A DNA stretch of 64,000 bases from Eledone cirrhosa (Eukaryota), in assembly GCA_964016885.1 (NCBI GenBank), contig OZ024741.1, positions 43,524,001 to 43,588,000 on the forward strand. The letters run 5' to 3'. The notes beneath the pieces were generated by a model. That model made no database searches and had not been told where the DNA came from. It was given only the letters and a program-made list of their open reading frames with translations. The position numbers and the translations under genes are program-made. The number at the start of each line of letters is the position of its first letter. Within the stretch, counting starts at the first letter, position 1. Below are positions 3,995 to 62,612 of the stretch, in pieces.

Positions 3995-5165
3995 AACGGC
4001 GATGAATTAGTTTTGCGAGGTTTTTTATATGAAATCGTGCGTCGAAACAAATATTGTTATACATGGGGAGGGTCATATTTGTGTAATAATATTGCCAGGA
4101 TTAATAACAGAACACACTCATTGGATACCAGAGTGTCATGTTTGTGGACGCTACCCCTGGAGGGAAATTAGCTAACCAGTGTAGAAAGGCCCTGAGAAAG
4201 ACCCACTTAAAAATCAAGGTGGTAGAAAAGCTAGGAACCACCATAAAATACCTGATCAGCAAAACCTACCCTTTTAAGAAAACCCACTGTACCAATAGGA
4301 AATGTATCATATGTAAGGTAAACCCCCGGATAAACTGTAAAACTAGAAACGTAGTCTATAGCATAAGATGTACAGAGGGTACCTGCAGAAACATGACAAC
4401 AACCTACATAGGTGAGACAGCTCGTAGCATAGGTGAAAGGATAGACCAACACTGGGGGGAACTAAAAGGACGAAAAAACGGTTCAGTACTATACGAACAT
4501 GCCAGACAACAACACGACGGTAACATAGACAATATAGAAATTAGAATAATATCTAAACATAGAAATGACCCAGCAGATAGGCAAATCAGAGAGGCCAGTG
4601 AAATAGAACTTAGAAGACCAAGACTAAACAGAAAGAATGAATGGAATAACAAGAACACCCAAACAAACAACACTGACCTAAGAGAAGTATAAATAAGTAA
4701 ATAAAATAAAATAAAATAAATAAATAAATAAATAAATACATACACAAGCACAATAAAAACAAACACATAAACACACATTAGTCACCCAATCACGAACACA
4801 CATCACACATCAAACTAAACACTATACACACACGCAAACACATGCGCAAAGAAGACAAAATAAAATAAACAAACAAGCAAATAAATAAATAAATATATAG
4901 ACAGACTGAATAAAAATGGCGTAGCCATACAATTTAACAGGAGGAAACAATAGCACCACTGACGATGTTGCAGATGTGCAACAAAAGATTTATGATAAAG
5001 TATATATATGTGTTTGTGCCTATATTGTATCTGTATTATTTTTGACCGTCAGTCAGTCAATGGCAACATTGAGGACCGAATAAATTAAATTAACCGATAT
5101 AAAAGACACAGAAGCAAAAACCAACCAAACAGTGAGTGTGTTCTGTTATTAATTCTGGCAATATT
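3995..5165 (+). mobile_element. 5'-truncated Penelope-like element (GIY-YIG end plus pLTR) with inverted pLTR fragment at 3995-4122
   Basis: Same family as 45010-50810; 4080-4122 is the reverse complement of ~5130-5165; flanked by short TA repeats. Confidence 0.9.
4138..4692 (+). CDS. PLE GIY-YIG endonuclease domain (C-terminal ORF fragment)
   Basis: NVVYSIRC...YIGETARSIGERIDQH...RQIREASEI...LNRKNEW, preceded by a Cys cluster; part of a truncated element. Confidence 0.85.
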   Translation: MFVDATPGGKLANQCRKALRKTHLKIKVVEKLGTTIKYLISKTYPFKKTHCTNRKCIICKVNPRINCKTRNVVYSIRCTEGTCRNMTTTYIGETARSIGERIDQHWGELKGRKNGSVLYEHARQQHDGNIDNIEIRIISKHRNDPADRQIREASEIELRRPRLNRKNEWNNKNTQTNNTDLREV

Positions 5166-5174
5166 ATATATATA

Positions 5175-6531
5175 TGAAAGACGTAAAATAAGAAAATTAT
5201 GAAAGTTAACTTACTTACTAAAATTTCACTCAAACTAATTAGTTTCTGAAAGGGAATAAACATGGTTTCCGAAGGAAAACATGGAGAAAGCCTTTCGTCA
5301 TCAGGGAAGTCTATTCTCAGGTAATTTCCCAGGCGATGCGTGGTCACAGGGAACTTATACAAAAATAATTCAGTGGATGGAAAAAAGCAAAGCGTGGACT
5401 AAGTTCCAAGACACTGAAAAAATCACTGCCTACTTGGTCGGTGGCAAATTCAAAAGAATCAATCACGTGAGATCGAGGTTAATCAGTGAGGAGTGGGGTT
5501 TTAAGAAGACAGCAGCCGAACCATTACTATGAACTATAGTAGCAGTTTTGGCAAATTTTTGCTCAACAAAATAATTTGGAGATAATTATAAAGAATTAGT
5601 ATATCTACCAACATATATATACAGATGCATACCTATGGTAGCAACTATATAGGTTTTGTCTTAGTAACTTTGTGGTTCAATGCAAGGGGATGCAGAACAA
5701 TTATATTAAAGACGTAAAATAAGAAAATTATAAAAATTAACTTACTTACTAAAATTTCCCTGATGACGAAAGGCTTTCTCCATGTTTTCCTTCGGAAACC
5801 ATGTATATTGCCTTTCAGAAACTAATAAGTTGGAGTGAAATTTTAGTAAGTAAGTTAATTTTAAAATTTTCTTATTTTACGTCTTTCATTTAATTGTTCT
5901 GCATCCCCTTGCATTGAACCACAAAGTTACTAAGACAAAACCTATATAGTTGCTACCATAGGTATGCATCTGTATATATATGTTGGTAGATATACTAATT
6001 CTTTATAATTATCTCCAAATTATTTTGTTGAGCAAAAATTTGTCAAGACTGCTACTATAGTTCATAGTAATGGTTCGGCTGCTGTCTTCTTAACACCACA
6101 CTCCTCACTGATTAACCTCGATCTCACGTGATTGATTCTTTTGAATTTGCCACCGACCAAGTAGGCAGTGATTTTTTCAGTGTCTTGGAACTTAGTCCAC
6201 GCTTTGCTTTTTTCCATCCACTGAATTATTTTTGTATAAGTTCCCTGTGACCACACATCGCCTGGGAACTTAGCTGAGAATAGACTTCCCTGATGACGAA
6301 AGGCTTTCTTCATGGTTTCCTTCGGAAACCATGTTTATTCCCTTTCAGAAACTAATTAGTTGGAGTGAAATTTTAGTAGGTAAGTTAAGTTTTATAATTT
6401 TCTTATTTTACGTCTTTCATATAATTGATCTGCATCCCCTTGCATTGAACCACAAAGTTACTAAGACAAAACCTATATATTTGCTAGCATAGGTATGCAT
6501 CTGTATATATATGTTGGTAGATATACTAATT

Positions 6532-6535
<4 letters not shown>
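5175..6535. mobile_element. Non-coding HHR-bearing repeat (retrozyme-like), 530-nt monomer; ~1.1 copies on minus (5175-5757) fused head-to-head to ~1.5 copies on plus (5757-6535)
   Basis: CTGATGA at 5760 and 6290 (530 apart); the inverted arm is visible; TA-repeat flanks. Confidence 0.85.
6284..6366 (+). ncRNA. Type I hammerhead ribozyme with extended stem II (other copies 5756-5836 +, 5228-5310 -)
   Basis: ACUUCC CUGAUGA C GAAAGG..CAUGGUUUC/GAAACCAUG..CCUUUC A GAAAC UAAUUA GUU GGAGU. Confidence 0.8.
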
Positions 6536-6569
<34 letters not shown>

Positions 6570-6936
6570 CGGGTTATAGATACTGTCGCTCAGAGAGTGG
6601 GATTGGATCAGTGCACAGTCTTTCCTCACTTTAAAAATTATCTACATGCTCAGACATTGCACGATAGAATTAATTAATTGTTTCTACATTTGGCACAAGG
6701 CCAGCAATTACCCTATGAATTACTGGTACTTTATTCTATCGACCCCGGAAGGATGAAAGGCAAAGTTTACCTCGGCGGGATTTAAACTCAGATCATACAG
6801 GGAGGCAACTCTATGCATCAAAGCATGGCATCCGACACTCTACCGATACTGCCAATCCACAGAATTAATTAATGACTATTAATAATGGTATATCGTGCAA
6901 TGGCCATACTCGATAACGAGGGGGCATCCATCATCA
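6570..6936. repeat. Unclassified dispersed repeat, interrupted here by a SINE; uninterrupted inverted copy at ~56660-56830
   Basis: GGGTTATAGATACTGTCGCTCAGAGAGTGGGATTGG...CATTGCACGATA matches the reverse complement of 56660-56830. Confidence 0.8.
6679..6860 (-). mobile_element. tRNA-derived SINE with Meta-type central domain, 13-bp TSD
   Basis: A box TGGCAGTATCGG, B-box-like GAGTTTAAATCCC, core GCCTTTCATCCTTCCGGGGTCGATA; TSD AGAATTAATTAAT at 6666-6678 and 6861-6873. Confidence 0.9.
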
Positions 6937-9804: not shown

Positions 9805-9965
9805 CAATAATTGTTTCTACTTTTGGCACAAGGCCATCAATTATCCCAGTGCATTACTGGTACTTTATTTTATCGACCTCGTAAGGATGAAAGGCAAAGT
9901 CAACCTCGGCGGGATTTGAACTCAGATCGTAAAGGGACGTAACTATGCTGGAAAGCATGGTGTCT
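9805..9965 (-). mobile_element. SINE copy (5' truncated)
   Basis: Matches 6679-6860 and 16435-16624. Confidence 0.9.
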
Positions 9966-10026
9966 AGAATAGAGAAGAACATGGAAGCAATGTATGAATA
10001 AGAGAATAGAAGAATGAATGAATAAC

Positions 10027-10215
10027 GTAATAATTGTTTCTACTTTTGGCACAAGGCCAGCAATTATCCCAGTGTATTACTACTACTTTATTTTATCGAC
10101 TTCGTAAGGAGGAACGGCAAAGTTAACCTCGGCGGGATTTGAACTCAGAATGGCAAGGGTGGTAACTCTATGCGTCAAAGCATGGCGTCCGACCCTCTAC
10201 CAATACTGCCAATCA
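10027..10215 (-). mobile_element. SINE copy
   Basis: Same family. Confidence 0.9.
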
Positions 10216-11573: not shown

Positions 11574-11988
<415 letters not shown>

Positions 11989-13122: not shown

Positions 13123-16100
13123 ATGATCTAGCTGTCGTCTGCTCGATAGCGTAGACGTAATTCACTTCGCGCAGAAGTTTTGTTCCAATTTATTGCGGAA
13201 ATTTTGTAAGTTTAATTTAAATTTTGATACTATTTTGTAGCTTGATCCTCCGTCTGAACTGTCAGGCGGTGGGTCAGCTCATTTTCGCCCCTCCCAGGGG
13301 TGAAAAACCTGTTTTTAAAACATTTTGTTGCATAAAATTTCAATCGTCTGGGAGAAATGTTAAATGAAGCTAACGAAAATAGTGGTGGGGGACAGCGGTA
13401 AGAGTTGTAAGCTCGCACGCTTTAGTCCCCCCTTCCTTCCCAACTAACGTCATAGAGAAGGAAATAAAAAATAAAATAAAAATAGACGAATGTGCGGAGA
13501 AAAATGTCGACGAAAACACAAATCTGGAGATTGATTCCAACAACTGTGCCAACCTGGACTTGGACGAACCACAGTGGTCAATCTAGATCGTACTTAGATA
13601 GATTCTTAGTTAGAAGTAAGGATAGGGACATATTAAGCTGTCTAGAAATGCTCACAGTTGGCTATACATATCACAAATTAGTGACCTGCGTAGTCAATCT
13701 CGAGAGAACACATAGACAGGGTCCCGGTTACTGGAAACTTAAGTTGTCTTTACCGGCAAAAGAGGCTTACAGAGACCGGATTAGCAGATTAGTTAAGGAG
13801 AGGTTGACGGGTGCAATCGTCAACAACCGATGGTGGGCATCTCTCAAAAGAGAGATTAGAACAGAATCAATAAGTTATAGCAAGATGTTAGCTGCCGATA
13901 GGAATAGGAACGAGAAAGAATTAACAGGTAAATTAGAAGAGGCAATCAAGAGCGAAGATGTGGCCAGAGTGCTGGCATGGAGGACGGCATTGAGCCAGTT
14001 TTTCGATGCAAAGCACGAAGGCTGCGTCATTCGAAGTAAAATACGTGGGGGATAGTATAAATAATTTTCGGCCCATAACCCTGCTAAACACAGAGTTAAA
14101 GATTTTGGCCAAGGTGTTAGCAAAGAGGTTGGCGCTTGTCGTGGATAGCCTGTTGGGAGATGCGCAGACATGTGCTATCCCATCCAGGTCCATTCACGAC
14201 AACCTCCACCACATGCGATACATCATAGAGAGGGTTGGCAACAAACCCGGCTTCGGTGGGGCCCTGATCAACTTGGATCAGTCTATGGCGTTCGATAGGG
14301 TCGACCATGGTTACCTGGATGCGGTGCTAGCGGCGGCTGAGTTCGGTCCTGTTTTCAGAGGCTGCATTACTGCCTTACATAGCAACCACATCTGTTCTAG
14401 GATCAAGGTGAAGAGCTACCTTTCGAAGCCATTCGAAACCACACGATCCATTCGACAGGGGTGCCCTCTCTCCTCCCTTCTGTACGTATTGACTCTCGAG
14501 CCTTTACTGAGGAAGTTGGAGTTGTTGCAGGGTATCCCCCTGGAACCAGGATTGAGCAAAGCGGTGTCGGCCTACGCCAATGACGTAACAGTAATGGTAT
14601 CGACCGACTCGGAGATCGAGGCGATCGGTACCTTACTGGAGGAATACGAAAGGTTGTCAGGAGCGAAACTGAACCGGGAAAAATCCATCGAGCTGCAACT
14701 CGGTACGTGGGGAGGCAGACCGATGCCTCCCGACGGTGTCGTCAGACACTGGACAGAGGGCTCGGTGAAGTTGCTTGTGGTCTGGTTTGGACCGGACCTC
14801 CAGGTGGGAAAGAACTGGGGCGAGGTTACGAGCAAGGTGTTTGCACTGACCCAGAAATGGGCCAAGTGTAAGCTGTCCCTGAAAGGTCGGGCGGAGGTGG
14901 CGAACATTTACATAGCGTCCGTCCCCTACTACCGCCTGACTGTCGTGCCTTGCCCTAAGGAAACACTCACCACCATGGAACGCATGCTCTTTCAATTTCT
15001 TTGGTAGAAGCGCCCTCCTATGGTGAGAAGATCCATCTGCTGCCAACAACCTTCGAAAGGAGGGCTGGGGATGCCGTGGTTGATGATGCGTAGGCACGCA
15101 TTAAGGCTACGACACCTACAGGTATTCCTCACTGGCCAACCGGTGTGGCCTCCGTTCGTGAGACGAGCCTTTCCGAGACTCGTCTCGCTCACCGAGCTGC
15201 AGTCCTGGGTCAAGCAAAGATCCGGAAAACTGGGCAACTGGCACACTGAGTGTGCCCAGGCGCTCAGGGCTCTCCGGCAAGCGGACCCGGCCATCGGTGT
15301 AGAATCCACCTCATCATTCTATAGAGGGCTGGTGGCTAGCAGGGGCGATGACACCCTTGGAGAGTCGCTGGACATGGAAGAGGATGAACTGGTCAGCCTG
15401 TTCGGTAGGACTTTCGGCCCGGGACCAATGGACAACTTCCAGAAGTCACTGGCCTGGCAGTGCTACCGGGGGGTTCTACCCGTTCGAGAAAAGCTCTACA
15501 GACACGGGCGCCCGGGCAGGGATCCCTGGAAAAAGATTTGCCCTACATGCGTTCGTCACGAAGAAACCGCTGCGCACGCATTGGTGCACTGTCCGGGCGT
15601 GGCTGATCTGTGGGGCTACGCTGTACGACTGCTGTCGCGGGTGGCGCCGATTCGATTGACCGCCGTGTCCGTGATAACAATCAAGCCGCCTCCCCTCTTC
15701 ACAAAAGAAGCAAAGGCGGTTTTTCTGTGCGTAATAGCCATGTTGAAAGAGGTTGTTTGATGGACACAATTGAAAGGTCTGAGGTCAGGCAACTTCCTCT
15801 CTGGCCTTAGTCTGGTCTACTTCTTCCGATATCACTTCGGAAGAAGGATAAGAATGGAGAGAGAGGTGCTTGGCCACAGGCAGTTTTATGAAAGGTGGGT
15901 GATAGTGGCAAGAATGGCTCGTGTAAATGGGCCTTCTCTGTATACCATCCTGTAGGTAAAGAAGTGAAGGAGAGGGTAGCACCTTCTCCATGTGCTCCCC
16001 GGGAAAAGGATTGCACACTTTTTCGGGGGTGTGTGCAACCCCCATCACGTCCCCTCCCTTTTGAGATTGTTTTTGATTATTTTCATTTTATACCCTTTTT

Positions 16101-16434: not shown

Positions 16435-16624
16435 TAATAATTGTTTCTACTTTAGGCACAAGGCCAGCAATTACCCAGTGCATTACTGGTACTTTATTTT
16501 ATCGACCCCGTAAGGATGAAAGGCAAAGTCAACCTCGGCGGGATTTGAACTCAGATCGTAAAGGGACGTAACTATGCTGGAAAGCATGGCGTCTGACTCT
16601 CTACCGATACTGCCAATCCACCGC
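16435..16624 (-). mobile_element. SINE copy (full length)
   Basis: Same family. Confidence 0.9.
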
Positions 16625-23854: not shown

Positions 23855-24240
23855 TTAATAATTGTTCTTCATTTGGCACAAGGCCAGGAATTAACCAGTG
23901 CATTACTGGTACTTTATTTTATCGACCCCATAAGGATGAAAGGCAAAGTTAAACTCGGCGGGATTTGAACTCAGAATGGCAAGGGCTGTAACTCTATGCG
24001 TCAAAGCATGGCATCCGACCCTCTACCGATACTACATAATTGCTTCTACTTTTGGCACAATGCCAGCAATTATCCCAGTGCATTACTGGTACTTTATTTT
24101 ATCGACCCCGTAAGGATGAAAGGCAAAGTTAACCTAGGCGGGATTTGAACTCAGAATGCAAGGGCCGTAACTCTATGCATCAAAGCATGGCGTCCAACCC
24201 TCTACCGATACTGCCAATTCACCACCCTACCGATACTACA
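23855..24240 (-). mobile_element. Two tandem SINE copies
   Basis: Units at ~23855-24035 and ~24036-24225. Confidence 0.9.
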
Positions 24241-26321: not shown

Positions 26322-26565
26322 AATAATTGTTTCAACCTTCGGCACAATGCCAGTAATTATCCCAGTGTATTTACTGGTGTTTGATTTTATCGATCCTGTA
26401 AGGATCAAAGGCAAAGTTAACCTCGGCAGTATTTGAACTCAGATCATAAAGGGAAGTAACTCTATGCTTCAAAGCATGGTGTCCGACCCTCTACCGATAC
26501 TGCCAATCCACCTAAATAATTGTTTCTACTGTTGGCACAAGGCCAGCAATTACCCAGTGTATTAA
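26322..26565 (-). mobile_element. SINE copy plus adjacent 3' fragment
   Basis: Same family. Confidence 0.85.
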
Positions 26566-29239: not shown

Positions 29240-30559
<1,320 letters not shown>

Positions 30560-32853: not shown

Positions 32854-33478
32854 TAAAATAGCAGATTAAAACTTAAGCAACGAATCGCTGCTTTGACCCT
32901 TAAGCAGCGATTCTTTGCTTCAACTTTAATCTGTTATTTTAATAAATATTTGCTCTACGGTTCTTATATATTTGATATATATTTATCTTTATCGAGCCCT
33001 CTTTGGATTTTAGTCTTTAAATTTATTATTATTACTATTTGGCTCCATCGGTTGAGCACTCTATTGACTTATATTCATCATGCAGAAACAACATCTGAAT
33101 ATACCTGTACCAAGCAGGAAAACATACCTAAAACTCCTGATACAGAAAACAGACGCGTTCATTAAAAGGTTGCGTTGGCGTGGCTTTTGTTTCGATAATC
33201 AGGGAAAAGCAGACAACAAACAGGATACATTTGGGTTTAAAAGCTATAATAACCCTGCGAGTAACCCAGCATTGCTACCCTTCGAAAATGATGTCTTGGA
33301 ACTCATATGGAGTAGCGAATTTCGCAATCGGAGCAATTCCTTCCAGCAGGACCTGAAGAATAGAATTCGTTCTATTAAGGATTCTAATGCCGTGCACATC
33401 CACTCCGACAAAACTGGCAATCTATATCAAGTGGAGCGCAGTACTTACCATCAACTGCTACATATATATATATATACA

Positions 33479-33566
<88 letters not shown>

Positions 33567-33569
<3 letters not shown>

Positions 33570-33706
33570 CGAAGGAAATGTGGTAAAGAACCAGGTGGAC
33601 CATAACGCACCAAAGTACTCAATACTTAGGGTAGTAGAGTGGGTAATAGGAACGAGTAGGACACCGACGGCTGAGCTCAAGCCGTTTCGACAGCTAATTC
33701 TGGACT
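33567..33706 (-). mobile_element. Member of the 11707 family, truncated in HHR stem II
   Basis: Matches 11707-11845. Confidence 0.85.
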
Positions 33707-38702: not shown

Positions 38703-40735
38703 CAGAGTAATTCGTAGTGGCAGGGATGAAGCAGTCATCTAGATATCCCTTCCAGATATGCTTCATCCTTTGGCACGAAAACATCGAAAAACTTAAAGAA
38801 TTTCACACCTTTATAAATGGGCTCAACACAAATATTATCTTCACGATGGAATACAGCCATCAACAATTCCCCTTCCTCGACATCCTCATTAAGATCCATA
38901 ACAAAAAATAGAAACAGACATATACTACAAGCCCACAGACTCCAAGCAATATCTCCCCTTCAACTCTTGCCACCCTAGACACGTTAAAATTAATATTCCC
39001 TACAACTTAGCCAAGAGAATCTGTACTATAGTCTCCAATAAAAACATATGCTACTTACGGCTACAAGAACTAAAGGACACACTCATAGGCAGGGACTACC
39101 CTGCATCACTAATTGTCAATGGAATCCAACGTGCCCTAAAACTCAGTACCCAGGACCTTAGACACCCTAAAGTAAATCAACCAAAACTAGAAGCTCTTCC
39201 ATACATCTCCACACACAACCCCCTCAACAATGAGGCCTTTGACACCATCCTCCAGAACATCCCTGTATTGAAAAAGGACTATAGAATGAACCAAATTCTA
39301 CGAACACACGACATCATAAAGAGCAAAAGACAATCCAAATCAATGAAAAACATCTTAACACATGCCAAAGTACTGCCAACCACAACAACGAAACCCACAG
39401 TAAAAGAATGCGATAGACCCAACTGTGGCATTTGCATCAACCTAATAGAGGGTTCGGAATTCTATTTCAAAGATGGACAACGTTTTATAGTAAAACCCAA
39501 TTTCACATGTGCATCGGAAAATCTAATATATGTATTAACTTGTTCAGGTTGTCGAGAACAATACATAGGCCAGACGAAAAACAGCCTCCGCCAACGCATG
39601 ACTGTCCATAGATCCCAAATCAAAATACGGGAATACAGGAAAATACCACTGAGTGAACACATTGATACCTGTGCCGCCCAAAATCATCCCAACTTCAGAA
39701 TCTTTCCCCTCTACAAATTTAAAGATAATGCCGCCCACACCCAGCGCATCAGCAAGGAATCTTACTTCATTAACAAATACGGACCTCGTCTAAACACTTC
39801 TCCCTAAGACGAACCCACAACATACACACGTCAACATACATACCTACATCAGCACACATCTCTACCCACATATAAATACAATGACATACGCAAACACACA
39901 TGCTCTATGGTGCAACACAAGAAAATATATGTGCACATATATATATGTATATATATATGTATATATATATGTATATATGTATATGTATATATGTATATGT
40001 ATATATGTATATATATAGTGAATGTATGTATGTGCATATATATATAGTGAATATCATTTCACACCTTTTATTGTTAAGATTTTTGATGTTCTATTAAGAG
40101 AACCGATTTTACTGAAAAAATCGAATAATGTACACCATTTACCAGGGAAAAAAAAAATACTGGTCCACCCACATACACACACACACACACAGACACACAC
40201 ATATATACACACACACATACACACGCGTACATCAACATACAAACAGACTTATATATACACACACACACACACATATTTGTTGTGAAAAGTCATTTCTCAA
40301 TCTTGGCGCAAAACCAATTTTTTATTCACATGACCTCTACCGACCAATCAAAATTGTTTTGACCACAATAATTTTTGCTGGAGCCACTTTTTTAACATAA
40401 AAACAGTCTTGGCGCAAAATCAATTTTTTACATTCACATGACCTCTACCGACCAATCAAAATTGTTTTGACCACAAGAATTTTTGAAAATTGGAGCCACT
40501 TTTTTAACATGAAAACAGGTAGAATTCCCAAAACTAATCAGATCAGAGCAAACAGCACGGACACTCTATCTCAAAATTATTTTTGAAAAGCATTTAATAA
40601 TGCGCAACCGGGAAAAACTTAAAAACTTAAAACCACAACTGAATACTAACCCATACAATCACTAATACTCTTTTATTCCTAATTAAACCATTTTTCAACT
40701 GTGAACGATTTGTCAGCATTTTCTATTCCCTTTAC

Positions 40736-43009: not shown

Positions 43010-43895
43010 GGGGGGGGGGGTGAGAGAATAAGAATATGCGAAATAGTTTCTGATGTTGATAGGGCTGTGATACATATTTCAATGACGACAATGGCCACGC
43101 GATTCCGCCTATCCTATGCCATGATCTCATCAGATAGCTTCTTACATAAGGTTTCGTACTCGAGGTAATACAAATTAAAACGATAAAGAAACCGATAAAG
43201 ATAATGTTTTTGAAGCCTTCGTGCATTCCATTGTCGGCCCTAAACTCTCGCCACTGTTTTGCGCAGGCGTAAATGTGAAGAAAGTTTACCATCTAACTTC
43301 TACTCAAAACACAACGAAAGTAGCCAAGGCAAGTCCCCCCACCACCAAACAATCTCCCCCATCCCGGTGTGACGCGAGCCCCCAAGTTATAATTTACTCC
43401 CAGTCCCACGTCCTGCAGCAGCCGACCAAAACTCTGTGGTAGTGGTATAATTTAGCTAGAAAGTTATATAGAGAGATCGCTGGATATATAGATAGGTACG
43501 TACATGGATATATATAGTCAAATAGAAAGATAGATAAACAGAGACTTAGACAGATAGATAGACATATGGATAGAGAGATTGGCAAATAGATAGATTGATT
43601 AATTGATTTAAAAAATAGGTGATAAATGGACAAATAGATAGAAAGGTTCGGTTGATTTGATGTGATGTTTAGGAGAGATGTATATTATTATATTCACACG
43701 CGTTGCACATGCATATTTACCGATAAATATTTAGAAAGGAGAGCCCACAAATAGCTGGCGCTAGTCGTTTATACGTCTTGTAAGATACAATTGACTTGAA
43801 TGTGTTAAAAGCGATTCTAATGCAAGCCTTCATATAGTCGTATCGTTCTCTAAAATTGTATTTAGCTAATAGCGTGGAGAATGCTAGCTTAAACG

Positions 43896-44845: not shown

Positions 44846-45494
44846 TATTACTCCACGTATTACCTGCTTAGAAATTACCGCGAACTCGCTGCATAACTAT
44901 GGAAACATCTTGTTGAGTCAAACAAAGCCGTACGTTAAAACCATCCCCGACGTAGAGTACTCTACCTGGATTACCTATAACGATAACATGTTATCCCATA
45001 TATATATATATATTGTTATACTTGGGGAGGGTCATATTTGTGTAATAATATTGCCAGAATTAATAACAGAACACACTTACTGTTCGATTGGTTTTCGCTT
45101 CTGTGTCCTTTATATCGGTTAATTTAATGTATTCGGTCCTCAATGTTACCATTGACTGCCAACGGTCAAAAATACAGATACAATATAGACACAAACACAT
45201 ATATATAGTCTAACAAAGTTTTTTCGTTGCACATCTGCAACATCGTCAGTGGTGCTATTATATTTCCTACCGTTGCATTGTATCCCTACGCCATCTTTAT
45301 ATAGTCTGTTTATTTATTTATTTTTTTGTTGTCTTCTCTGCGCATGCGTTTGCGTGTGTGTATAGTGTTTTGTATGATGTCTGTTCGTGTTTGGGTGACT
45401 GGGTATTGGTTATTGTATTCTATCTTAGTTTACTAGTGTGTGTTTATATGTTTGTTGTTATTGTGCTTGTGTATGTATTTATTTATTTATTTAT

Positions 45495-48400
45495 TTATAC
45501 TTCTCTTAGGTCAGTGTTGTTTGTTTGGGTGTTGTTGTTATTCCATTCCTTTTTTCTGTTTAGCCTTGGCCTTTTAAGTTCTATTTCGCTGGCCTCTCTG
45601 ATTTGCCTATCTGCTGGGTCATTTCTATGTTTAGATATTATTCTAATTTCTATATTATCTATGTTACCGTCGTGTTGTTGTCTGGCATGTTCGTATAGTA
45701 CTGAACCGTTTTTTCGTCCTTTTATTTCCCCCTGTGTTGGTCTATCCTTTCACCTATGATACATTTCCTATTAGTACAGTGGGTTTTCTTAAAAAGGTAG
45801 GTTTTGCTGATCAGGGATTTGATGGTGGTTCCTGGCTTTTCTACCACCTTTATTTTTAAGTGGGTCTTTCTCAGAGCCTTTCTACACTGGTTAGCTAATT
45901 TTCCTCCAGGGGTAGCATCCACAAACATGACCCTCTGGTATCTCTGGTTATCGTACCATGATATGGCTTTCCTTTTTCTTATGTCTAGTCCTATGGAAGC
46001 TATTCCATGATTTGCTCCTGTATAATGGGCAAATTCCTTTCATGTCCAGTTTTATGAGGGTCTTATACTTCTCCGTGGTTCCTTCATATACTTTGATTCT
46101 GTCTCTTTGGTTGTAGCCAGAGAACTGCATGCGGTTGATGAAGTTTTGGATGTGCCTTTCCATTTCTGTTGGGTCGCACATGCGGGACACATTCTTCACC
46201 ACTCGTACCAAGTCTGCGATCAGAATATTAAACTTAGCACTACTAGACATTGCTGAGTTTTTGAGTATCAGGTATTTGGAGCCATGGGTTTAGCATAGTG
46301 TGGGTGGATAATTTGGGCTCTCTCGTCTATAGTGTTAATCCAGAATTCCGTGTCTAATACAGGTAGTCTATTGTTAGAGTGTTTGGAAGGGCAGTCGATA
46401 GTTACAGTTACACTCTGGTGTATGGAATTAGCTATCTGCTGGATGCTTTCCATTGTGCTACGTTCTAAATCAAACTTGTTAGTGCTCTCTTGTGGGATGT
46501 CCTTATTACTATATTGATGTCGTCTACGTAACGACAGTACATGATGTGGTCTATGGAGATCTCATCAAGATCTTTGAGTCGCTTTTCCCAACATACCATA
46601 AAAAGGTTGGCAGCGTCACCAGCTATGCTTACGCCAATGGCTGCTCCCTCATTTTGGGTGTAGATCTTCTCGTTGAACTTGAATATGTGGCTCTTTAGGG
46701 TAGTTTTTATACTAGCCCCTATTGCATGTGCGACCATTTTTCTTACCGGATCATTGTTTTGGGGGGTTCCTTATAGTTTTGGTCCACCCAATCCACCTTC
46801 CCATGGGAGTCTTTTTTGCCATTGAGGTTATGGTGGTGGGTCTACCTCTTATGGGTCTACTGGGGAAGAAACGTCTAAGGTCGTGGCTGTCTAGGTAGTC
46901 AGTGTCGTAGGTAAGTCTAAGTAGGAGGCCCAGTTTGTCTGTGTCGACGTCGCAGAACTCCACCTCACTCTCAATGATCATCTCCACACATTTTTCCACA
47001 GCAAAATCAATGTTAATGGATGGGTACAGTGATACCACATCCATACTGCCTATTATGCAGTTGGATAGGTTCCTGTTTTTGTTGCACTCACTGATTCTGC
47101 TGAGGAGGTCCTCTGTACTGTCACATACATCTGGGGACATCTTCATTATGGGGCGTATAACCATTGAGAGGAAGTAGGAGATCCTGTAGTTGCTAGCTAT
47201 ATTTGCTCCGCATACAGGTCTTGTTGGTTGCCCTGTTGTCGGGTCGTAGACTGTCTTGTGGCCTTTGCGGAGCCCATACAAGGGTGGTATGCCATTGTTA
47301 GACGCCTGGAGGTTGTTGGCAGTGCGTCTGGTTGGCTTTAGGATGTCGGTCCACATCATCATATGAGCGTTGAGGGTTTTCTCTCTCCCATCATGTATTT
47401 GCTTTACAATTCGCTCGTGTTGGTGATGTGGGGTTGCATAGCCTTCATGTATTTCGGCATGCTGTCTATTGACATCCTTCCAGACTTATCCGCGGTTAGA
47501 CATACTACCTCACCATCCCTTGTGCGCTGCTTGAGGCTAACCAAGCCTTCTACAGGTTTCCTCCCAAGTTGTTGGACCTCTGGTGTGCTCTGTTTCTTAG
47601 TATACCGGTCTATATTTGTCTAATCTTATTTCTAGCTATGGTGAACTGTGCCTCTGTCTCGTCATCTATTTGTTGTGGTATGCAAACCCCTTTTATTAAA
47701 AGGTAACCTCGTAGGATAGATATTACCCATCTTATATGTTTTGTCAGCTGGGTTGAAGAATAGTTTCTCTAAGGGATTGTCATTATATCTATCGTCATAG
47801 TTGTGTGTGTTGTTATTATTGTTATTATGGTAGTTGTTGTTCCACCTATCATTAGCATTATTATTATTGATATGATTGCGAGATGTAATGTTGCTGTGAT
47901 TGTTAGATGTGTTGTTGTTGTTTTCTCCACCGTTATTGTTGTTGTTACTGCTATTTCTACCATTGTGGTTGTTACTTTTATTATGTTTCTTGTTTTTGTT
48001 GTTGTTGTGTCTATCATTAATGTTGCTACATATATTATTTCTGTTATTACCACTATGGTTGTTGTTGTTGTTACTCTTACTGTTACCGTTATTACTACTG
48101 TGGTCGCTGCTGCTGTGTATGTAGTTAATATTTCTATTATCATTATTATTCTGGTTGTTGTTGTTGTTCTGTCTATCGTTAGTATTATTACCATTATTAC
48201 TATTTCTCACTCTCCTGCTATTGTTATTGTTATGACTATTACTATTATAGCTGTTATGTCTATACTCAGAGTTATTGTTTATATTACTACTATCGTTATT
48301 AGTGTTGCTGTTGTCCGTATATTTGTTGTTGTTGTTTACTTTTGCATTCCAACGTATTTTTGTGAAACACTTTTCCAGCTCCGTTTTGCACTCGATAGGG

Positions 48401-49076
48401 TTAATCTTTTTGTAGATGGCAAATCTCGGTGGTAGCTGCAGGATTTGTTGTTATTGTTCACTGATTAAAGTGTTCCCATAAATATTTACTGTGTGGTCAT
48501 TGGTAAATACTCCGATAGTTCTACATCAGTCATACGGATATTGTTGATGTTATCTGGGTATTTTGGGGAATATTCTATTTTTCTTTCTTCTAGTTTTTTC
48601 TTATTCATACATTCTAATTTCTTATTGAAATGCCTATTGCATTCGTTTCTGGCGTATTTCGTTTCACGTCGAATGATGCTCATGAAGTCATCCCTCTCGT
48701 TTGGTGTGGTGAGATTTCGGACTTCCTTACCGTTAATGCGTTTCTGTCTGTAAAGTTCGTTAACTTTTGTGTATGTTGTTCTTTTCATATGAACTGTTAT
48801 TGTCTGTTTTAGTCGTCCAGCTTCTGTTTTGTTCAATAATAAATTATTTACTTGTTTTGATATGTTTGTTGTGTATATTTTGAAGGAAACACAGTGTTTT
48901 AAGAAGCGGATTTGTTCTGTTGTTATTGTTGTTTTTATATAACAGAATACAGTGTCTTTCAATAACCTTTCAGCTTGGCACCAGCTAATGCCATAACGGC
49001 GATGAATTAGTTTTGCGAGGTTTTTAATATGAAATCGTGTGTCGAAACAAATATTGTTATACTTGGGGAGGGTCAT
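45495..49076 (-). pseudogene. PLE polyprotein (N-terminal domain, Asn-rich tract, RT, GIY-YIG with internal deletion), multiple frameshifts
   Basis: ADKSG, PPLYGLRK, PTRPVCGA, SMDVVSLYPSI, YTQNEGAAIG, CRYVDDI, LPVLD; the YIGET segment is deleted relative to 4138-4692. Confidence 0.92.
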
Positions 49077-49251
49077 ATTTGTGTAATATTGCCAGAATTA
49101 ATAACAGAACACACTCACTGTTTGGTTGGTTTTCGCTTTTCGCTTCTGTGTATTTTATATCGGTTAATTCAATTTATTCGGTCCTCAATCTTACCATTGA
49201 CTGACCAACGGTCAAAAATACAGATACAATATAGACACAAACACATGTATA

Positions 49252-49305
49252 TAGCCTAACAAAGTTCTTTCGTTGCACATCTGCAACATCGTCAGTGGTG
49301 TTATT
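49252..49305 (-). ncRNA. Hammerhead-like motif in PLE pLTR (also ~4952-4995 +, ~45208-45258 -, ~50508-50553 +)
   Basis: CUGACGA U GUUGC AGAUGU GCAAC GAAAG AA CUU; stem I pairs poorly and two copies have lost GAAA. Confidence 0.55.
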
Positions 49306-54663: not shown

Positions 54664-54692
<29 letters not shown>

Positions 54693-54696
<4 letters not shown>

Positions 54697-56581
54697 TAAT
54701 TTAATATATCAACTAACATAGGCGCACAGATGCACGTCCATGCCAGCAAATACACAGGTTATGTCATAGTACCTAGGTGGTTCAATGCAGGAGGGTGCAG
54801 AACAATAATATAAAAGACGTAAGATTAGAAAATATTTTTTAAAGAATTTTTTAAACTTTTTTTACTTACTTACTTAAATTTTCACTCCAACTAATTAGTT
54901 TCTGCAATGGGATAAAGACAGTTACGTAATCCAACTGTCGAGAATTCATTGCGTCATCAGGGAGTCTATTCTCAGCTGAGTCTCCAGGCAATGCGCGGAC
55001 ACTGGCGGCTCATATAAAAATAATAATAATTCGGTAGAAAGAACAGCTGGCGAGGACTGGATTCCATGTACTGAAATTCTCACTGCTTCTAGTCAAATGG
55101 CCGATTCTAAAGAATCAATCACGTGACACAGAGGCTAGTTAGAAGGAATGGGATGGTAAGATGACTGACGCCTACTAACACCCCAAACAAAATTTAGAAG
55201 TGGTTTTGGCAGGTTTGCTCGACAAATCAGTGATTTGGAGATAAATATAGATAATTTAATATATCAACTAACATAGGCGCACAGATGCTCGTCCATGCCA
55301 GCAAATACACAGGTTATGTCATAGTACCTAGGTGGTTCAATGCAGGAGGGTGCAGAACAATAATATAAAAGACGTAAGATAAGAAAATATTTTTAAAAAA
55401 ATTTTTTAAAAATCTTTTACATACTTACTTAAATTTTCACTCCAACTAATTAGTTTCTGCAATGGGATAAAGACAGTTACGTAATCCAACTGTCGAGAAT
55501 TCATTGCGTCATCAGGGAGTCTATTCTCAGCTGAGTCTCCAGGCAATGCGCGGACACTGGCGGCTCATATAAAAATAATAATAATTCGGTAGAAAGAACA
55601 GCTGGCGAGGACTGGATTCCATGTACTGAAATTCTCACTGCTTCTAGTCAAATGGCCGATTCTAAAGAATCAATCACGTGACACAGAGGCTAGTTAGAAG
55701 GAATGGGATGGTAAGATGACTGACGCAAACTAACAACCCAAACAAAATTTAGAAGTGGTTTTGGCAGGTTTGCTCGACAAATCAGTGATTTGGAGATAAA
55801 TATAGATAATTTAATATATCAACTAACATAGGCGCACAGATGCACGTCCATGCCAGCAAATACACAGGTTATGTCATAGTACCTAGGTGGTTCAATGCAG
55901 GAGGGTGCAGAACAATAATATAAAAGACGTAAGATAAGAAAATATTTTTTAAAAAATTAAAAAAAAATTTTTTACTTACTTACTTAAATTTTCACTCCAA
56001 CTAATTAGTTTCTGCAATGGGATAAAGACAGTTACGTAATCCAACTGTCGAGAATTCATTGCGTCATCAGGGAGTCTATTCTCAGCTGAGTCTCCAGGCA
56101 ATGCGCGGACACTGGCGGCTCATATATGTTAGTTGATATATTAAATTATCTATATTTATCTCCAAATCACTGATTTGTCGAGCAAACCTGCCAAAACCAC
56201 TACTAAATTTTTTTGGGGTGTTAGTAGGCGTCAGTCATCTTACCATCCCATTCCTTCTAACTAGCTTCTGTGTCACGTGATTGATTCTTTAGAATCGGCC
56301 ATTTGACTAGAAGCAGAGAGAATTTCAGTACATGGAATCCAGTCCTCGCCAGCTGTTCTTTCTACCGAATTATTATTATTTTTATATGAGCCGCCAGTGT
56401 CCGCGCATTGCCTGGAGACTCAGCTGAGAATAGACTCCCTGATGACGCAATGAATTCTCGACAGTTGGATTACGTAACTGTCTTTATCCCATTGCAGAAA
56501 CTAATTAGTTGGAGTGAAAATTTAAGTAAGTAAGTAAAAAATTTTTTAAATATTTTTTAAAAAATATTTTCTTATCTTACG

Positions 56582-56588
<7 letters not shown>
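54693..56588. mobile_element. Non-coding HHR-bearing tandem array (retrozyme-like), 555-nt monomer; ~2.6 copies on minus plus an inverted ~0.8 copy (56126-56588)
   Basis: HHRs at 54884-54965, 55439-55520, 55994-56075 (-) and 56434-56515 (+); (TA)n on both sides; distant relative of 5175-6535. Confidence 0.9.
56434..56515 (+). ncRNA. Type I hammerhead ribozyme with extended stem II
   Basis: ACUCC CUGAUGA C GCAAUG..GACAGUU/AACUGUC..CAUUGC A GAAAC UAAUUA GUU GGAGU. Confidence 0.85.
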
Positions 56589-56661
<73 letters not shown>

Positions 56662-57302: not shown

Positions 57303-60300
57303 ATGTGTATTATTGGTTGTGTCATACGGTTCAATAAACTTTTGTTAGCACTATTAAGTTCTCCACGCTTTTGTATATCTCCAATTCCATTTGGAACAAT
57401 TCCACAGGAACAGCTAGATGATGTAAAACGGAGTATTTGTATCAAAATAAAGATCCGAAGGCATGGCATAAATTTCCAATCATTTTAATCACGACACATG
57501 TTTCAATAAGAGATAGGTCGATCGTGCAGCCATGATCGATTATCACTGATCTCGTCAGGTGAACATGAATTGTCTTCAAATTCTTGATATGAGGGAGAAC
57601 ATTTAACGATGTTCACTCACTAGAGTTTTGTCCCCCATATGAAGATTAAGCAGCCAAAACACGCCAACTGCTATCGTCCTCGGTTAAGGTCATAAAACTA
57701 TCAAGTCTCTATCTCTCAATAGCTGTAAAAGACGCTGGACGTGTCTAATCTCAACATCAAATTCTTTAGAATTACATCGGTCACAGTTAGTGTGAGTGAG
57801 TACACACACACTCACACACACCGACGCGAGGTCGAAGAAAAAAAAAATATATAGCAACATAGTTAATTTACAAAACAACAAATGTTATATTGGTCAAATC
57901 TCAACTTGACGATGTAAATTGGAGAAATTGGGTCAACCGCAACCCTATACACACGCAAGTAAATTCAGTGTATCGATTGAATTCTAAATAGTGTATGTTT
58001 TGGTATATACACATCCGTATTGTCTAAAAAAGTGTATGTTTTGGTATATACACATCCATGTGAAGAGCAAGTAGTCAGCTAATATCGAAATCTGTATGTG
58101 CCGTTGTCCGATTGAGAATCTGAATCATCAAATCTGTGCGTGCAAGCAACCGCCATGTAGGCCATCAAGGGGCTCTGTGTAGGGTTGTGTATGTGCGTTA
58201 AGGTGTCAGTATGTGCATTTTCCCGTCATATGGGCCCTTGGGCTTTTAAGATAGGTGTTTGAGTGGTGGATGTGTGTTACCCAACACAGAAATAAAATAA
58301 AATATAAAAATAGCAAAACCGAGGATGTGTGTAAGCCCATTAATGGTGTGTAAGTAAAATTGCCCAATCAGTAACCATGAGCACTCCATGGTTATATGAT
58401 CACGGATCAAAACCTAGTGTAGTTTTCAATTGATATGATCGTGACCAGTCATAACTGTGGGAACTCCGTGTCTAAAGAAACCGGGTACTGTGTTTAGAGT
58501 CATGTATAAAGAGCGTAATCAGTCTTAATTGAGTGTGTAATGAGTCTAACGATTTACTAACCGAGAGAACTCAATGGTTAGGGTATTCTAAAGTAATGGT
58601 CAATGCGCGTAATCGGTCTTAACTGGGTGTGTAATCATTCTATCTATTTACTAATTAGGTATTCTAAAGTAATGGTAAATGTGCACTCAGCTGTGGGAAC
58701 ACTGTGGAAACAAACGGAGTACCGTTCCTAAGTGCGCAAACGATCTTAGCTGTCTACTACCTGAGTGTGTGATTGTCTGTTTTTTGCTATTTGAGAGAAC
58801 TCTATGGCTAAGGTAAGAAGGGAGCAAATTATGGACCAGGATAAGGAGTGCTCTATATTCTGTTGTTTAAGCTTCCAGACTAATTTAGAAAGCGCCGTGC
58901 TATTTGTTTTATCTAATCTATTAAATGTATGGCGGTGATTATACCATATATCCTTAAATTCAGTGGCAGTTGCCCCAACATACCTGAAGGTTCTATCTAA
59001 AGTGGAGACCTTATAGTCGTAGACTGTTTTTCGTGAGGCATTTCCCAGCCATGGGGCAAGTGGCGGTGTTGCTGTAATTACATTTTCTGTTATCGACCTG
59101 CGTAGTTCCAGAGGAACCACGGTACCTCTGGTGTCGGGTCTCAGTTCTTGTCTGCTCTATGGGTAAGTTCCCAGGGGTTGGGGTGACCGACTCGCCTCAC
59201 GCGTATGAGACCGTTCAACAATAGAGCTGCCATTAGTTCTGCCATGTCTCATCCCGCCTTGGGCTGTCCTAAGTCTACGATAATTCATCTTAGCTATATT
59301 CTTAGCTATGTTACTGGTTGTGGAGTAGGACAGCTTGATGGTATTCCTATTGAATATTTTATAGCATCTATGTGATCTAGGGAAGAATTTGTCTAAGGCC
59401 CTAAAGAAAGGCTGAGCTATATTCGTAGTCAGGCCGGTGGAGTATGGGGGGTTGTACCACAGGATTTTTCTTGTTCTTATTATCTATACTAGTGTTACCT
59501 CTCTCCTTGGTTGCTACTGGTCTATTAGAACTGATAACTACCTGTGGATCGATGGTGTCCTGGGGTGTCCTGATGGTGTTTGGAATCGTCCCAAGTCTCT
59601 GGGCGGGGTACCCCATGCAGTTATTGGGATTACCATCCATAGCAGGGTTTTATATCCACTATGCGCCTCCTACATTTATCCCTATTCCCTCACCCGACCC
59701 CCGTTCTATTTTAAGTCGACGGTTGTTTTATCAGTTCTACAATTAAGGTTAGAATTAGAGTTTCCGCTGGTACGGTGCTCGGACGCCATGTTTGTACCTG
59801 GGTGATTGTTTCCATTGGTACCATCAACATTGGGACTAGAAGGCAATACAACATGAAGTCTATATTGATCCTCCCTCGCCTGCCGCCTGCTGTTAACTAA
59901 AGTGTCACTATTTTAGCCTAAGCTATCGCAGGCAATGTTGCTACCACTATTTAATGGACGTTTGAATGACATTCCCTCGCTACGCCCCTCGCGTTCCAGG
60001 GCGCTATTATAGTAATTCGAGATCCTATCAAAAGTATCTTCCTTGGAAGATAGTCCTGAAATTGTACAAAAGACGCTTTTGGTAATACCGTTAGTGACTA
60101 TTCTTATTCTGCGATTTCTCAAACTAGTTAATTACCTCACTAGTTTCTGGCCACAATTTAAGCTTCGATTTCCTAATTAGAGTGGGGATTATTTTATCAA
60201 GGATGTTTTTACTCACGATTCCTATGTCCGACTTCGAAGGGGCTATCAGCCTGACAGGTCTTGATGATTCAAAGTTTAATTTGTGGTCTTTCAATAAAAT

Positions 60301-61054: not shown

Positions 61055-62612
61055 GTCATACGGCCTATCCGTAAATATGGACCTCAACCACAAGGTTGTC
61101 AACTTCCTGGACGTGACCCTGGAGTTGAGTACGGGCTTATACAAGCCATACCATAAGCCTGGAGAGTGCTTCTCTTATATTAATTATGCCTCCAACCACC
61201 CTAAACAGACTCTCAACTCTATAGTCTATAGTATCTCACATAGAATCTCGAGGCTATCCACCAATGAGGATATCTTCAACTAAGCGGCAGATTACTACAA
61301 TAATAAGCGCTGGCTTTAACCGAGGAATTCCCTACATCCCTAACGCTAGCTCTAGAACCCCCCCTCATAAAACGAACGTTATAGTAAGCCATACCTATAA
61401 ACGATCACGCGGCGACCTCGGTGAAGTGGGATACAATAGAATAGATAATCGCACTAAAGATCACGACCCCGTCGACGGTGACCACTGTAGATTACTCGAA
61501 CTATTCCCCTACTACGAAACCAACAAAGGCGACGGCCTACTACCAACGCCTTCCAACATCTTCCTGTACATAAACATGGAAGAAGGAAGAAGAGTGCATC
61601 CGAGCATAAAGTGAAAGGGGCACCTAACGGGCTACAGCGCATTAACATATATAAGAGCGTTCACCTAGATGGAACCACCCGTAGCAAATGTACAAGGAGA
61701 CGTATTCGCCACCGTAACGTCCTATGGTCCCCCCCCTACTCTCGGAGTGTGGCCTCCAACATACCCCGGATATTCTTCGAAGCCTTAGAGAAGAATTTCC
61801 CGCCCAACCACAGGTATAGAAACATTCTTAATAGGAACAATATAAAAATATCCTTCTCTACTACTCCTAACCTAGCAGACATCATAGGAATAACGAACCA
61901 TAGTAAGATTACCAAGACACAGCACCACGACACAGACGCACCTACACCTGACAATAACTATATCAGCCTTAACAACACCCTAGCAGTATCCAATAGTGCT
62001 GGCAACCGCCTCCGCAGACGCAACCAGCATGCCCGCGAAATGACAGGGGAACATGCAGGACATGACGTGCGGAATAACAATCGCACCACCCCGCGTGCTG
62101 TGGGTTGTAATGGTGCTACTGACAGCTGCGGGAGCGTAGGTAACAACGTAGGCAGCAACAATGATAGCCTTACTGTGGGAAATAGATGGAACCGCGACAG
62201 AAATTGCAACTGCCGCGACAGAAGACGCTGCCCCCTTAGAGGATACTTCTTGACTGATAGGGTTATATATAGATGCACTGTAACTAGCCACAATAGCGTT
62301 AAATATTATATAGGGGCTACCTCCGGCCCGTTCAAAATTAAGTTTCGAACACATCTCCACTCTTTCACAAATAAAAAAACTAAAACACTCCACTTCGCTC
62401 GCAGACAAAATCAAATCACTAAAGGACTTAAACATCAGCTTCTCCACGACTGGGATATTGTCGGAACGGCTGCACCTTACAACTTCAAGAGGAAGTGCGA
62501 TCTTTGCCTCATGGAGCTCTACCACATCATAACTACACCCCACGAGCTCATCAACAGCAGAGCTGAAACAGCGATGAGTTGTACACATCGCTTAAAAATA
62601 TCCTTCTTCTGA
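61055..62612 (+). pseudogene. Second Naiad-like PLE, 5' truncated (RT thumb plus GIY-YIG)
   Basis: VVNFLDVTLEL..YKPYHKP..SNHP, WSPPYS, HRYRNILNRNNIKISFSTTPN, CNC..CPL, VIYRCTV..YYIGAT..FK, CDLCLME, INSRAE..CTH. Confidence 0.88.

Follow-up and report, generated by a model that had tools for sequence, protein, structure and literature searches.

Three groups of described hammerhead ribozymes come closest to the repeats analysed here. Metazoan non-LTR retrozymes are tandem, non-coding, low-GC units with one type I hammerhead each, occurring in thousands of copies, with a strongly self-paired predicted circle and a palindromic stem III (Cervera & de la Peña 2020, PMC7229834; Li et al. 2026, 10.64898/2026.07.22.740005); they have been proposed to be non-autonomous Penelope-like elements (PLEs) in both accounts. 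The hammerheads of PLE pLTRs have a short stem I, a long stem II and a palindromic stem III (Cervera & de la Peña 2014, PMC4209133; Craig et al. 2021, 10.1101/2021.04.23.441226), and in the elements themselves one arm is inverted and 5'-truncated, only one end has a tail, and microsatellites are the targets (PMC4209133; 10.1101/2021.04.23.441226). The third group comprises pseudoknot-stabilised and U10.1·U11.1 hammerheads (Perreault et al. 2011, PMC3088659; crystal structure, PMC11300833), mostly microbial, in which a Watson-Crick brace joins stems I and II, a 10.1·11.1 mismatch is tolerated, stem II is short and terminal loops or tails serve as the pairing partner.

The repeats described below lie in a 64,000-nt window of the Eledone cirrhosa genome (contig OZ024741.1, positions 43,524,001–43,588,000) and have the traits listed for the retrozymes, from which they differ by a two-tier stem II of about 50 nt (4 bp in theirs), a C·A opposition and a predicted Watson-Crick pseudoknot in place of loop 1–loop 2 contacts (PMC7229834; 10.64898/2026.07.22.740005). 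Their unit length is 508–560 nt, compared with 170–400 nt in PMC7229834 and 51–972 bp in 10.64898/2026.07.22.740005, and a comparable mismatch, U·U at the base of helix II, is described for the axolotl retrozyme hammerhead HHR_Amex2 (PMC7229834). The stem proportions, inverted arm, one-end tail and microsatellite targets of PLE pLTRs recur here, but there is no ORF, the two tails differ by ~115–122 nt as opposed to 30–40 (10.1101/2021.04.23.441226), and the PLE hammerheads keep G10.1-C11.1 with one extra base (PMC4209133) where C·A stands here. With the pseudoknot hammerheads the repeats have the brace, predicted in this case, and the mismatch in common, whereas here the predicted pairing partner is an internal loop set in a long stem II, and C·A is what stands at 10.1·11.1.

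Our preferred reading, to which we assign a probability of roughly three in four, is that these are non-coding tandem units with a type I hammerhead of covarying two-tier stem II and C·A; a pseudoknot likely braces the fold, the RNA likely cleaves itself as a stem III dimer, and its copying back into (TA)n likely depends on a Penelope-like element. Elements of this class are known; what appears to be new from the sequences is the C·A opposition, the predicted leader pseudoknot in a long two-tier stem II, and the junctions at the cut site. Literature searches met no description of such an architecture, which does not establish its absence from print. No paper that combines hammerhead with C10.1 or A11.1 came up in a whole-word search; its scope did not extend to the PLE hammerhead variants of Lünse et al. 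2017, the supplement of PMC7229834 or one supplementary file of PMC4209133, any of which may already show C·A or such an architecture.

Hammerhead arrays in the window and genome

The features of the window are as follows.

5171–5757, minus strand: inverted arm of the 530-nt retrozyme insertion; outer end 61 nt beyond the cut site, at (TA)n
5755–6538, plus strand: direct arm of the same insertion, ~1.5 units; outer end 176 nt beyond the cut site, at (TA)n
5223–5327, minus strand: hammerhead copy 1; C3 at 5304, G1.1 changed to U
5756–5841, plus strand: hammerhead copy 2; C3 at 5760, leader lost at the junction of the inversion, palindrome broken
6267–6371, plus strand: hammerhead copy 3, intact; C3 at 6290, C10.1 at 6297, A11.1 at 6347, G12 at 6348; predicted cut after 6361 (GUU/G)
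6276–6280, plus strand: leader GAGAA, 5' strand of the predicted pseudoknot
6298–6346, plus strand: long stem II; outer stem 6298–6303/6341–6346, inner hairpin 6311–6333
6306–6310, plus strand: 5' strand of the stem II internal loop, predicted pseudoknot partner
6350–6361, plus strand: palindrome AACUAAUUAGUU, stem III and predicted dimer helix
29378–30527, no single strand: sister retrozyme with a 531-nt unit and U10.1·U11.1; leader GGAAAA, loop UUUUCC; cores at 29569 (minus), 29694 (plus) and 30225 (plus)
54691–56591, no single strand: 555-nt subfamily insertion; outer ends 203 and 81 nt beyond the cut site
54879–54982, 55434–55537 and 55989–56092 (minus) and 56417–56520 (plus): hammerheads of the 555-nt subfamily

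Motif inspection of the window located the cores of the 530-nt family at 5304 (minus), 5760 and 6290 (both plus), the last two 530 nt apart, and those of the 555-nt family at 54960, 55515 and 56070 (minus, spacing 555) and 56439 (plus). All seven copies have CUGAUGA-C before the first and A-GAAAC after the second strand of a 6-bp stem, and in all seven the order is stem I, CUGAUGA, C, 6-bp stem, internal loop, inner hairpin, 6-bp stem, A, GAAAC-UAAUUA-GUU and stem I again. This layout is that of a type I hammerhead: the core has C3-U4-G5-A6-N7-G8-A9, G12-A13-A14-A15.1 and U16.1-H17, and there are three helices, the motif being open at stem I, with the stem III columns forced by the search pattern. 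The departure is at G10.1-C11.1, a highly conserved pair with known natural U·U exceptions, where these copies hold C·A.

A first-pass annotation had set both families between 5228 and 6366. Every motif that it quoted occurs in the window, but the 555-nt family lies at 54.7–56.6 kb, and within the annotated range one of three copies is fully intact, since the 5760 copy is damaged and the 5304 copy carries the G1.1 change. The perfect inner strand quoted for the 530-nt family, CAUGGUUUC, was found in the 6290 copy and is private to it, the other two reading CAUGUUUUC; the palindrome described as kept is present in the 6290 copy and broken in the 5760 copy. Most genomic copies have a mismatch or bulge in the inner stem, and its column pair 52-69 is unpaired in 44 of 104 aligned rows. 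The two monomers are ~71% identical overall, and only two of the six outer-stem pairs differ between the families. The reading as a "non-canonical HHR fold" is incomplete: apart from C·A the core is canonical type I, the element class is known, a mismatch at 10.1·11.1 has a precedent in U·U, and the likely leader pseudoknot had been overlooked.

The prediction that standard searches would miss the motif was borne out. Rfam hammerhead models gave no match at E ≤ 1 across the window, none at E ≤ 10 in 6200–6450 and none at gathering score in six loci of other families; the Rfam matches that did fall inside the window were microsatellite artefacts under the gathering score. The final filter of Perreault et al. 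2011 excluded 10.1-11.1 mispairs (PMC3088659). In comparison, a model built from the 104-copy alignment retrieves the seven window copies and, weakly, the three of the 29.4–30.5 kb array. Whole high-copy hammerhead radiations in animal genomes can thus escape descriptor and Rfam searches.

In the animal's own 3.0-Gb genome, the core pattern had 9,151 exact matches and its reversed control none. C10.1·A11.1 is present in 8,669 of the 9,151, so it is filed as a variant; both positions are altered in three only. Patterns with other stem III sequences added 972 matches (control 0), and further stem III patterns 7,265 (control 18), the latter with mixed architectures and some chance matches included. 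Tandem periods are 508–560 nt in the focal superfamily and ~483–531 nt in its sisters, with one type I hammerhead per unit, as in non-LTR retrozymes. Both arrays are non-coding, without a frame of at least 120 aa, and have GC of 0.35 and 0.37, the limit for the class being 45–50%. The sister superfamily of the 29378–30527 array accounts for the 972 pattern matches and includes G-C subfamilies.

Contigs of four runs of unrecorded kind carry the repeat in three organisms; starts, ends, strand and level are not readable there. Metagenomes had no match to the tight pattern, and among viral contigs (44 of 64 parts scanned) both stems occurred in one of 121 matches, with ~0.5 expected by chance on our estimate. 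A family retrieved by the C...A pattern (L110, L141-L152, L158-L166) lacks stems I and III and was set aside as another dispersed repeat.

Further CUGANGA...GAAA motifs at 43133 (minus), 28798 (plus), 27960 (plus), 2652 (minus), 60927 (plus) and 57558 (minus) may be additional hammerhead families or decayed copies. Elsewhere in the genome more families were seen (L008:370, L091:451, L074:68, L128 (-146), L065:2668), among them PLE-type minimal, U3-A8 core variant, short U·U, canonical and UAUAUA stem III forms.

Covariation of stem II and the state of 10.1·11.1

The sample of 197 loci plus the window yielded 174 copies with 118 distinct ribozyme regions, of which 104 were aligned; the other 14, with apparently truncated or altered leaders, were omitted, and the sample is skewed to best matches and pattern-selected subfamilies. 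Core and stem III were forced by the search patterns, so their invariance is no evidence. In a structure-blind alignment of the 104 copies, 93.3% of cells were paired compared with 39–51% when the partners were slid, and 10 of 24 pairs changed on both sides. The outer-stem pair 10.3-11.3 occurs in all four Watson-Crick types (AU 46, UA 27, CG 20 and GC 10 of 104). RNAalifold recovers both tiers of stem II unaided, albeit closed by a competing CUG/CAG core pairing.

The annotation had read the differences between two families as compensatory and called for an alignment of many copies. A tree-aware count on the 104 copies found 9 double Watson-Crick changes in the outer and 10 in the inner stem, compared with null means of 0.06 and 0.52, and none of 20,000 draws reached either value. 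In total, stem II underwent 19 independent double changes where ~0.6 were expected, which bears out a conserved fold to an extent that two families could not have shown. Only 8 of 2,648 non-structural column pairs had at least two double changes. With a tree of the flanks alone the counts rose to 20 and 20, probably because it was poorly resolved, and the lower ones were therefore adopted. Selection on the RNA fold thus has the support of covariation in many subfamilies. Alternatively, template switching, which can correct short hairpins, might have generated the complementarity by repairing quasi-palindromes, in DNA or in the course of reverse transcription, and RNA would then be under no selection; we hold this to be very improbable, given that ~37 nt separate the outer-stem arms, unpaired loops persist between them, the arms of the pseudoknot are not nested and individual copies retain single mismatches.

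The placing of C·A at 10.1·11.1 was also supported, in this case by sister families with unchanged spacing. The pair following C·A shows no compensation and is G-C in 98 of 104 rows; moreover, minimal PLE hammerheads retain G10.1-C11.1 and have an extra base between 9 and 10.1 (PMC4209133). Together these suggest another reading, in which that G-C is the functional 10.1-11.1 pair and C and A are two bulged insertions. Sisters hold G-C, U·U and A·C at this place with stem length unchanged, however, and their next pair is often other than G-C, which makes the insertion of two bases unlikely. One sister family has G-CUUUG.../...CAAAG-C in some subfamilies and U-CUUUG.../...CAAAG-U in others at equal loop spacing, and a three-copy subfamily has A·C or A·U ahead of the same GAAAGG/CCUUUC stem. 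Since G-C, U·U and A·C occur at the same spacing in sisters, the sequences favour a true substitution at 10.1·11.1 as the better reading. Across 24 families the states include G-C, U·U, C·A, A·C, A-U and others, some of which may be single-copy decay. U·U was already known at this position (PMC3088659; axolotl, PMC7229834). As these 10.1·11.1 states occur naturally on a single scaffold, they can serve to test how tertiary bracing buys tolerance in the core.

Predicted leader pairing and stem III dimers

The internal loop of stem II has a 5' strand complementary to five nucleotides that lie ~7–9 nt ahead of C3. The leader/loop pairs differ by family, being GAGAA/UUCUC, GGAAAA/UUUUCC, GAGAAG/CUUCUC and GAGCG/CGCUC in some and GAGCU/AGCUC, GAGUU/AACUC, AAAGA/UCUUU and GAAGAAU/AUUCUUC in others. 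The pairing was tested by permuting leaders among 24 families and comparing self with permuted pairing, after removal of two tandem micro-repeat matches (L199, L200). For the 5' loop strand the longest run was 4.71 for self and 3.63 for permuted pairing, and -dG was 5.37 and 3.09, respectively, with none of 100,000 permutations reaching these values (P<1e-5). In comparison, the 3' loop strand gave P=0.09 and 0.33 in the 24 families, and leader pairing with it was discarded as unsupported at coarser clustering. A far-upstream control window had P of 0.07 with 24 families and P=0.003–0.02 at a finer clustering into 34. The leader/loop signal persists when only the 19 long-stem families are used, and also after reduction to a single family for each stem III lineage (n=11), where the median P was 0.002–0.004 and the worst 0.02.

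Within the focal superfamily a single compensatory event was found in the pseudoknot, and hence its support comes from the other families. With at least four covarying Watson-Crick pairs computed to link the stem I and stem II regions, as in the pseudoknot hammerheads, the leader-to-internal-loop pairing is likely a pseudoknot. Pseudoknots between these two regions are known activators in all three hammerhead types (PMC3088659; PMC11300833), and the predicted one would activate cleavage here. Fold and cleavage might be real while the complementarity is inherited sequence or an alternative pairing, with C·A merely tolerated in the dimer. The lone event in the focal superfamily, the relatedness of the families and the lack of pairing in 5 of the 24, all short-stem, fit such a case, but the pairs vary by lineage (e.g., GAGAA/UUCUC and GGAAA/UUUCC) at constant spacing and the signal remains after collapse to 11 lineages, leaving it little probability beside the activating pseudoknot.

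Stem III alone has a folding energy of +1.5 kcal/mol as a hairpin and -9.0 as a homodimer. In the minimum-energy fold of the isolated motif the core pairs with stem III, and the hammerhead fold lies 2.5–3.9 kcal/mol above that minimum when neither pseudoknot nor dimer is included. The folding z-scores of the motif were only -2.1, -0.4 and -1.9, while circular monomers folded better than their shuffles (z -7.4 and -4.0). Sister stem IIIs are mostly self-complementary (CCAUGG, CCGCGG, CCGAUCGG, CCGCGCGG, CUGAUCAG and CUGUACAG), their outer bases being pattern-forced. A dimer mechanism has been described for metazoan type I hammerheads (PMC4209133; PMC6765202), and the modelled energies and self-complementarity fit it.

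Cut-site junctions and insertion ends

Copies starting at the predicted cut site were sought with a pattern in which the three bases before the cut are all foreign. It had 64 matches (control 2), compared with 7 at one control site 6 nt upstream, two of which are point or indel variants. Of the 63 cut-site matches recovered, 61 are junctions and two (L394, L414) are point variants with GUC instead of the GUU cleavage triplet. In 18 head-to-head arms the opposite arm also ends at the cut, with a linker of 0–3 nt; in 8 of the 18 this is a single A, possibly an untemplated base or a copy of U17. Blunt CACTCC/GGAGTG junctions, in which both arms end at the same bond, were found in L382, L422 and L434, and minimal inserts (L422, L434, L380) consist of (TA)n, a short arm ending at the cut, a long arm beginning at the cut, and a microsatellite. 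A separate list of 5' ends was uninformative on cut-site starts, its loci having been chosen for whole ribozymes. In one unit, L376, all of the ribozyme from the leader to the cut is absent, possibly through a template jump that began at a cleaved 5' end.

Arms meeting head to head at the cut are the product expected from two cDNAs running off a cleaved 5' end, and the cut-site starts suggest hammerhead cleavage in vivo. On a rough estimate, they make up ~2% of arms, from which most templates would have been circular or uncut. The function of hammerheads in endonuclease-bearing PLEs has been called unclear (Craig et al. 2021, 10.1101/2021.04.23.441226), and Frangieh et al. saw no RNA ends at the cut site; a genomic pile-up at the predicted scissile bond bears on this debate, and 5'-end mapping of this kind is repeatable in any genome. 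The structure could instead be selected for a helper reverse transcriptase or packaging rather than catalysis, the starts then being stalls of reverse transcription at the base of the palindromic stem III duplex. The dimer helix begins directly beside the scissile bond and predicts a similar start position, ~98% of arms read through (a rough estimate), and hammerhead mutants had no effect on Poseidon PLE insertion in vitro (PMC11167929). Such stalling is nevertheless improbable in our view, in that catalytic nucleotides are retained in dozens of divergent families, though partly pattern-forced, and the blunt junctions exist.

The 3' ends of the insertions are fixed. In the 530 type, 38 of 44 distinct ends fall at +56–64 or +171–181, and in the 555 type 10 of 11 at +81–84 or +203–206, followed in both by (TA)n or similar, while the 5' ends of the same loci are scattered. 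In each of the two window arrays, one outer end is short and the other long. A paired-end tally was discarded because an internal TA run at +142 confounded it. Fixed internal 3' ends, a tail at one end, an inverted arm and a microsatellite target are together what is expected of a non-autonomous PLE. PLEs have an inverted truncated arm, a tail at one end and microsatellite targets (10.1101/2021.04.23.441226), and initiate internally on both strands (PMC11167929); the ends of the arrays match this layout and two-strand internal initiation. Among the long frames of 247 loci no autonomous element sharing the repeat was seen. Different retrozyme families stand side by side in the same (TA)n tracts (L037, L038, L050, L005, L100).

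Returning to the putatively self-cleaving retrozyme, its cycle would run as follows. The tandem units would be transcribed, and the dimeric RNA would cleave itself after GUU via the palindromic stem III, the leader pseudoknot standing in for the loop 1–loop 2 contact and relaxing the need for G10.1-C11.1. The cleaved RNA might be circularised by a host ligase, and a PLE reverse transcriptase/endonuclease would prime two cDNAs at ~+61 and ~+176 nt. Both cDNAs would run off at the cut site of a linear cut RNA, leaving the short head-to-head inserts; with a circle or uncut multimer as template, synthesis would continue past that site and yield the common arrays longer than a unit. A broader proposal, for and against which we see about even odds, is that of an undescribed radiation of ~17,000 type I hammerheads in dozens of retrozyme families, in which the pseudoknot frees 10.1-11.1 to drift among G-C, U·U, A·C and C·A and the head-to-head inserts are a fossil record of self-cleaved linear RNA twin-primed by a Penelope-type enzyme, i.e., of cleavage in vivo within the Penelope cycle.

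A PLE 3' fragment (4108–5167) adjoins the 530-nt retrozyme through a short (TA)n. Its frame at 4108–4692 is 30% identical to a Pfam GIY-YIG frame, with a Cys-rich linker before the nuclease, and a minimal hammerhead-like motif with one extra base lies at 4959; related copies are at ~45045–45732 and 49073–49295. The fragment, which lacks homology to the retrozyme, possibly represents the helper class. Three more nuclease-like frames, probably from Penelope-like elements, occur at 38902–39807, 58746–59156 and 61491–62612, with a Pfam GIY-YIG match in the first only.

Other repeats of the window include a broken non-LTR retrotransposon with an RVT_1 domain (13486–15760) and a dispersed SINE-like repeat, which looks cephalopod-like, at 6682–6850, 9816–10207, 16445–16613, 23858–24212 and 26333–26501. 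Another repeat, at 11599–11887 and 33459–33702, is 95% identical between its two copies and has a long internal palindrome near 11790–11900.
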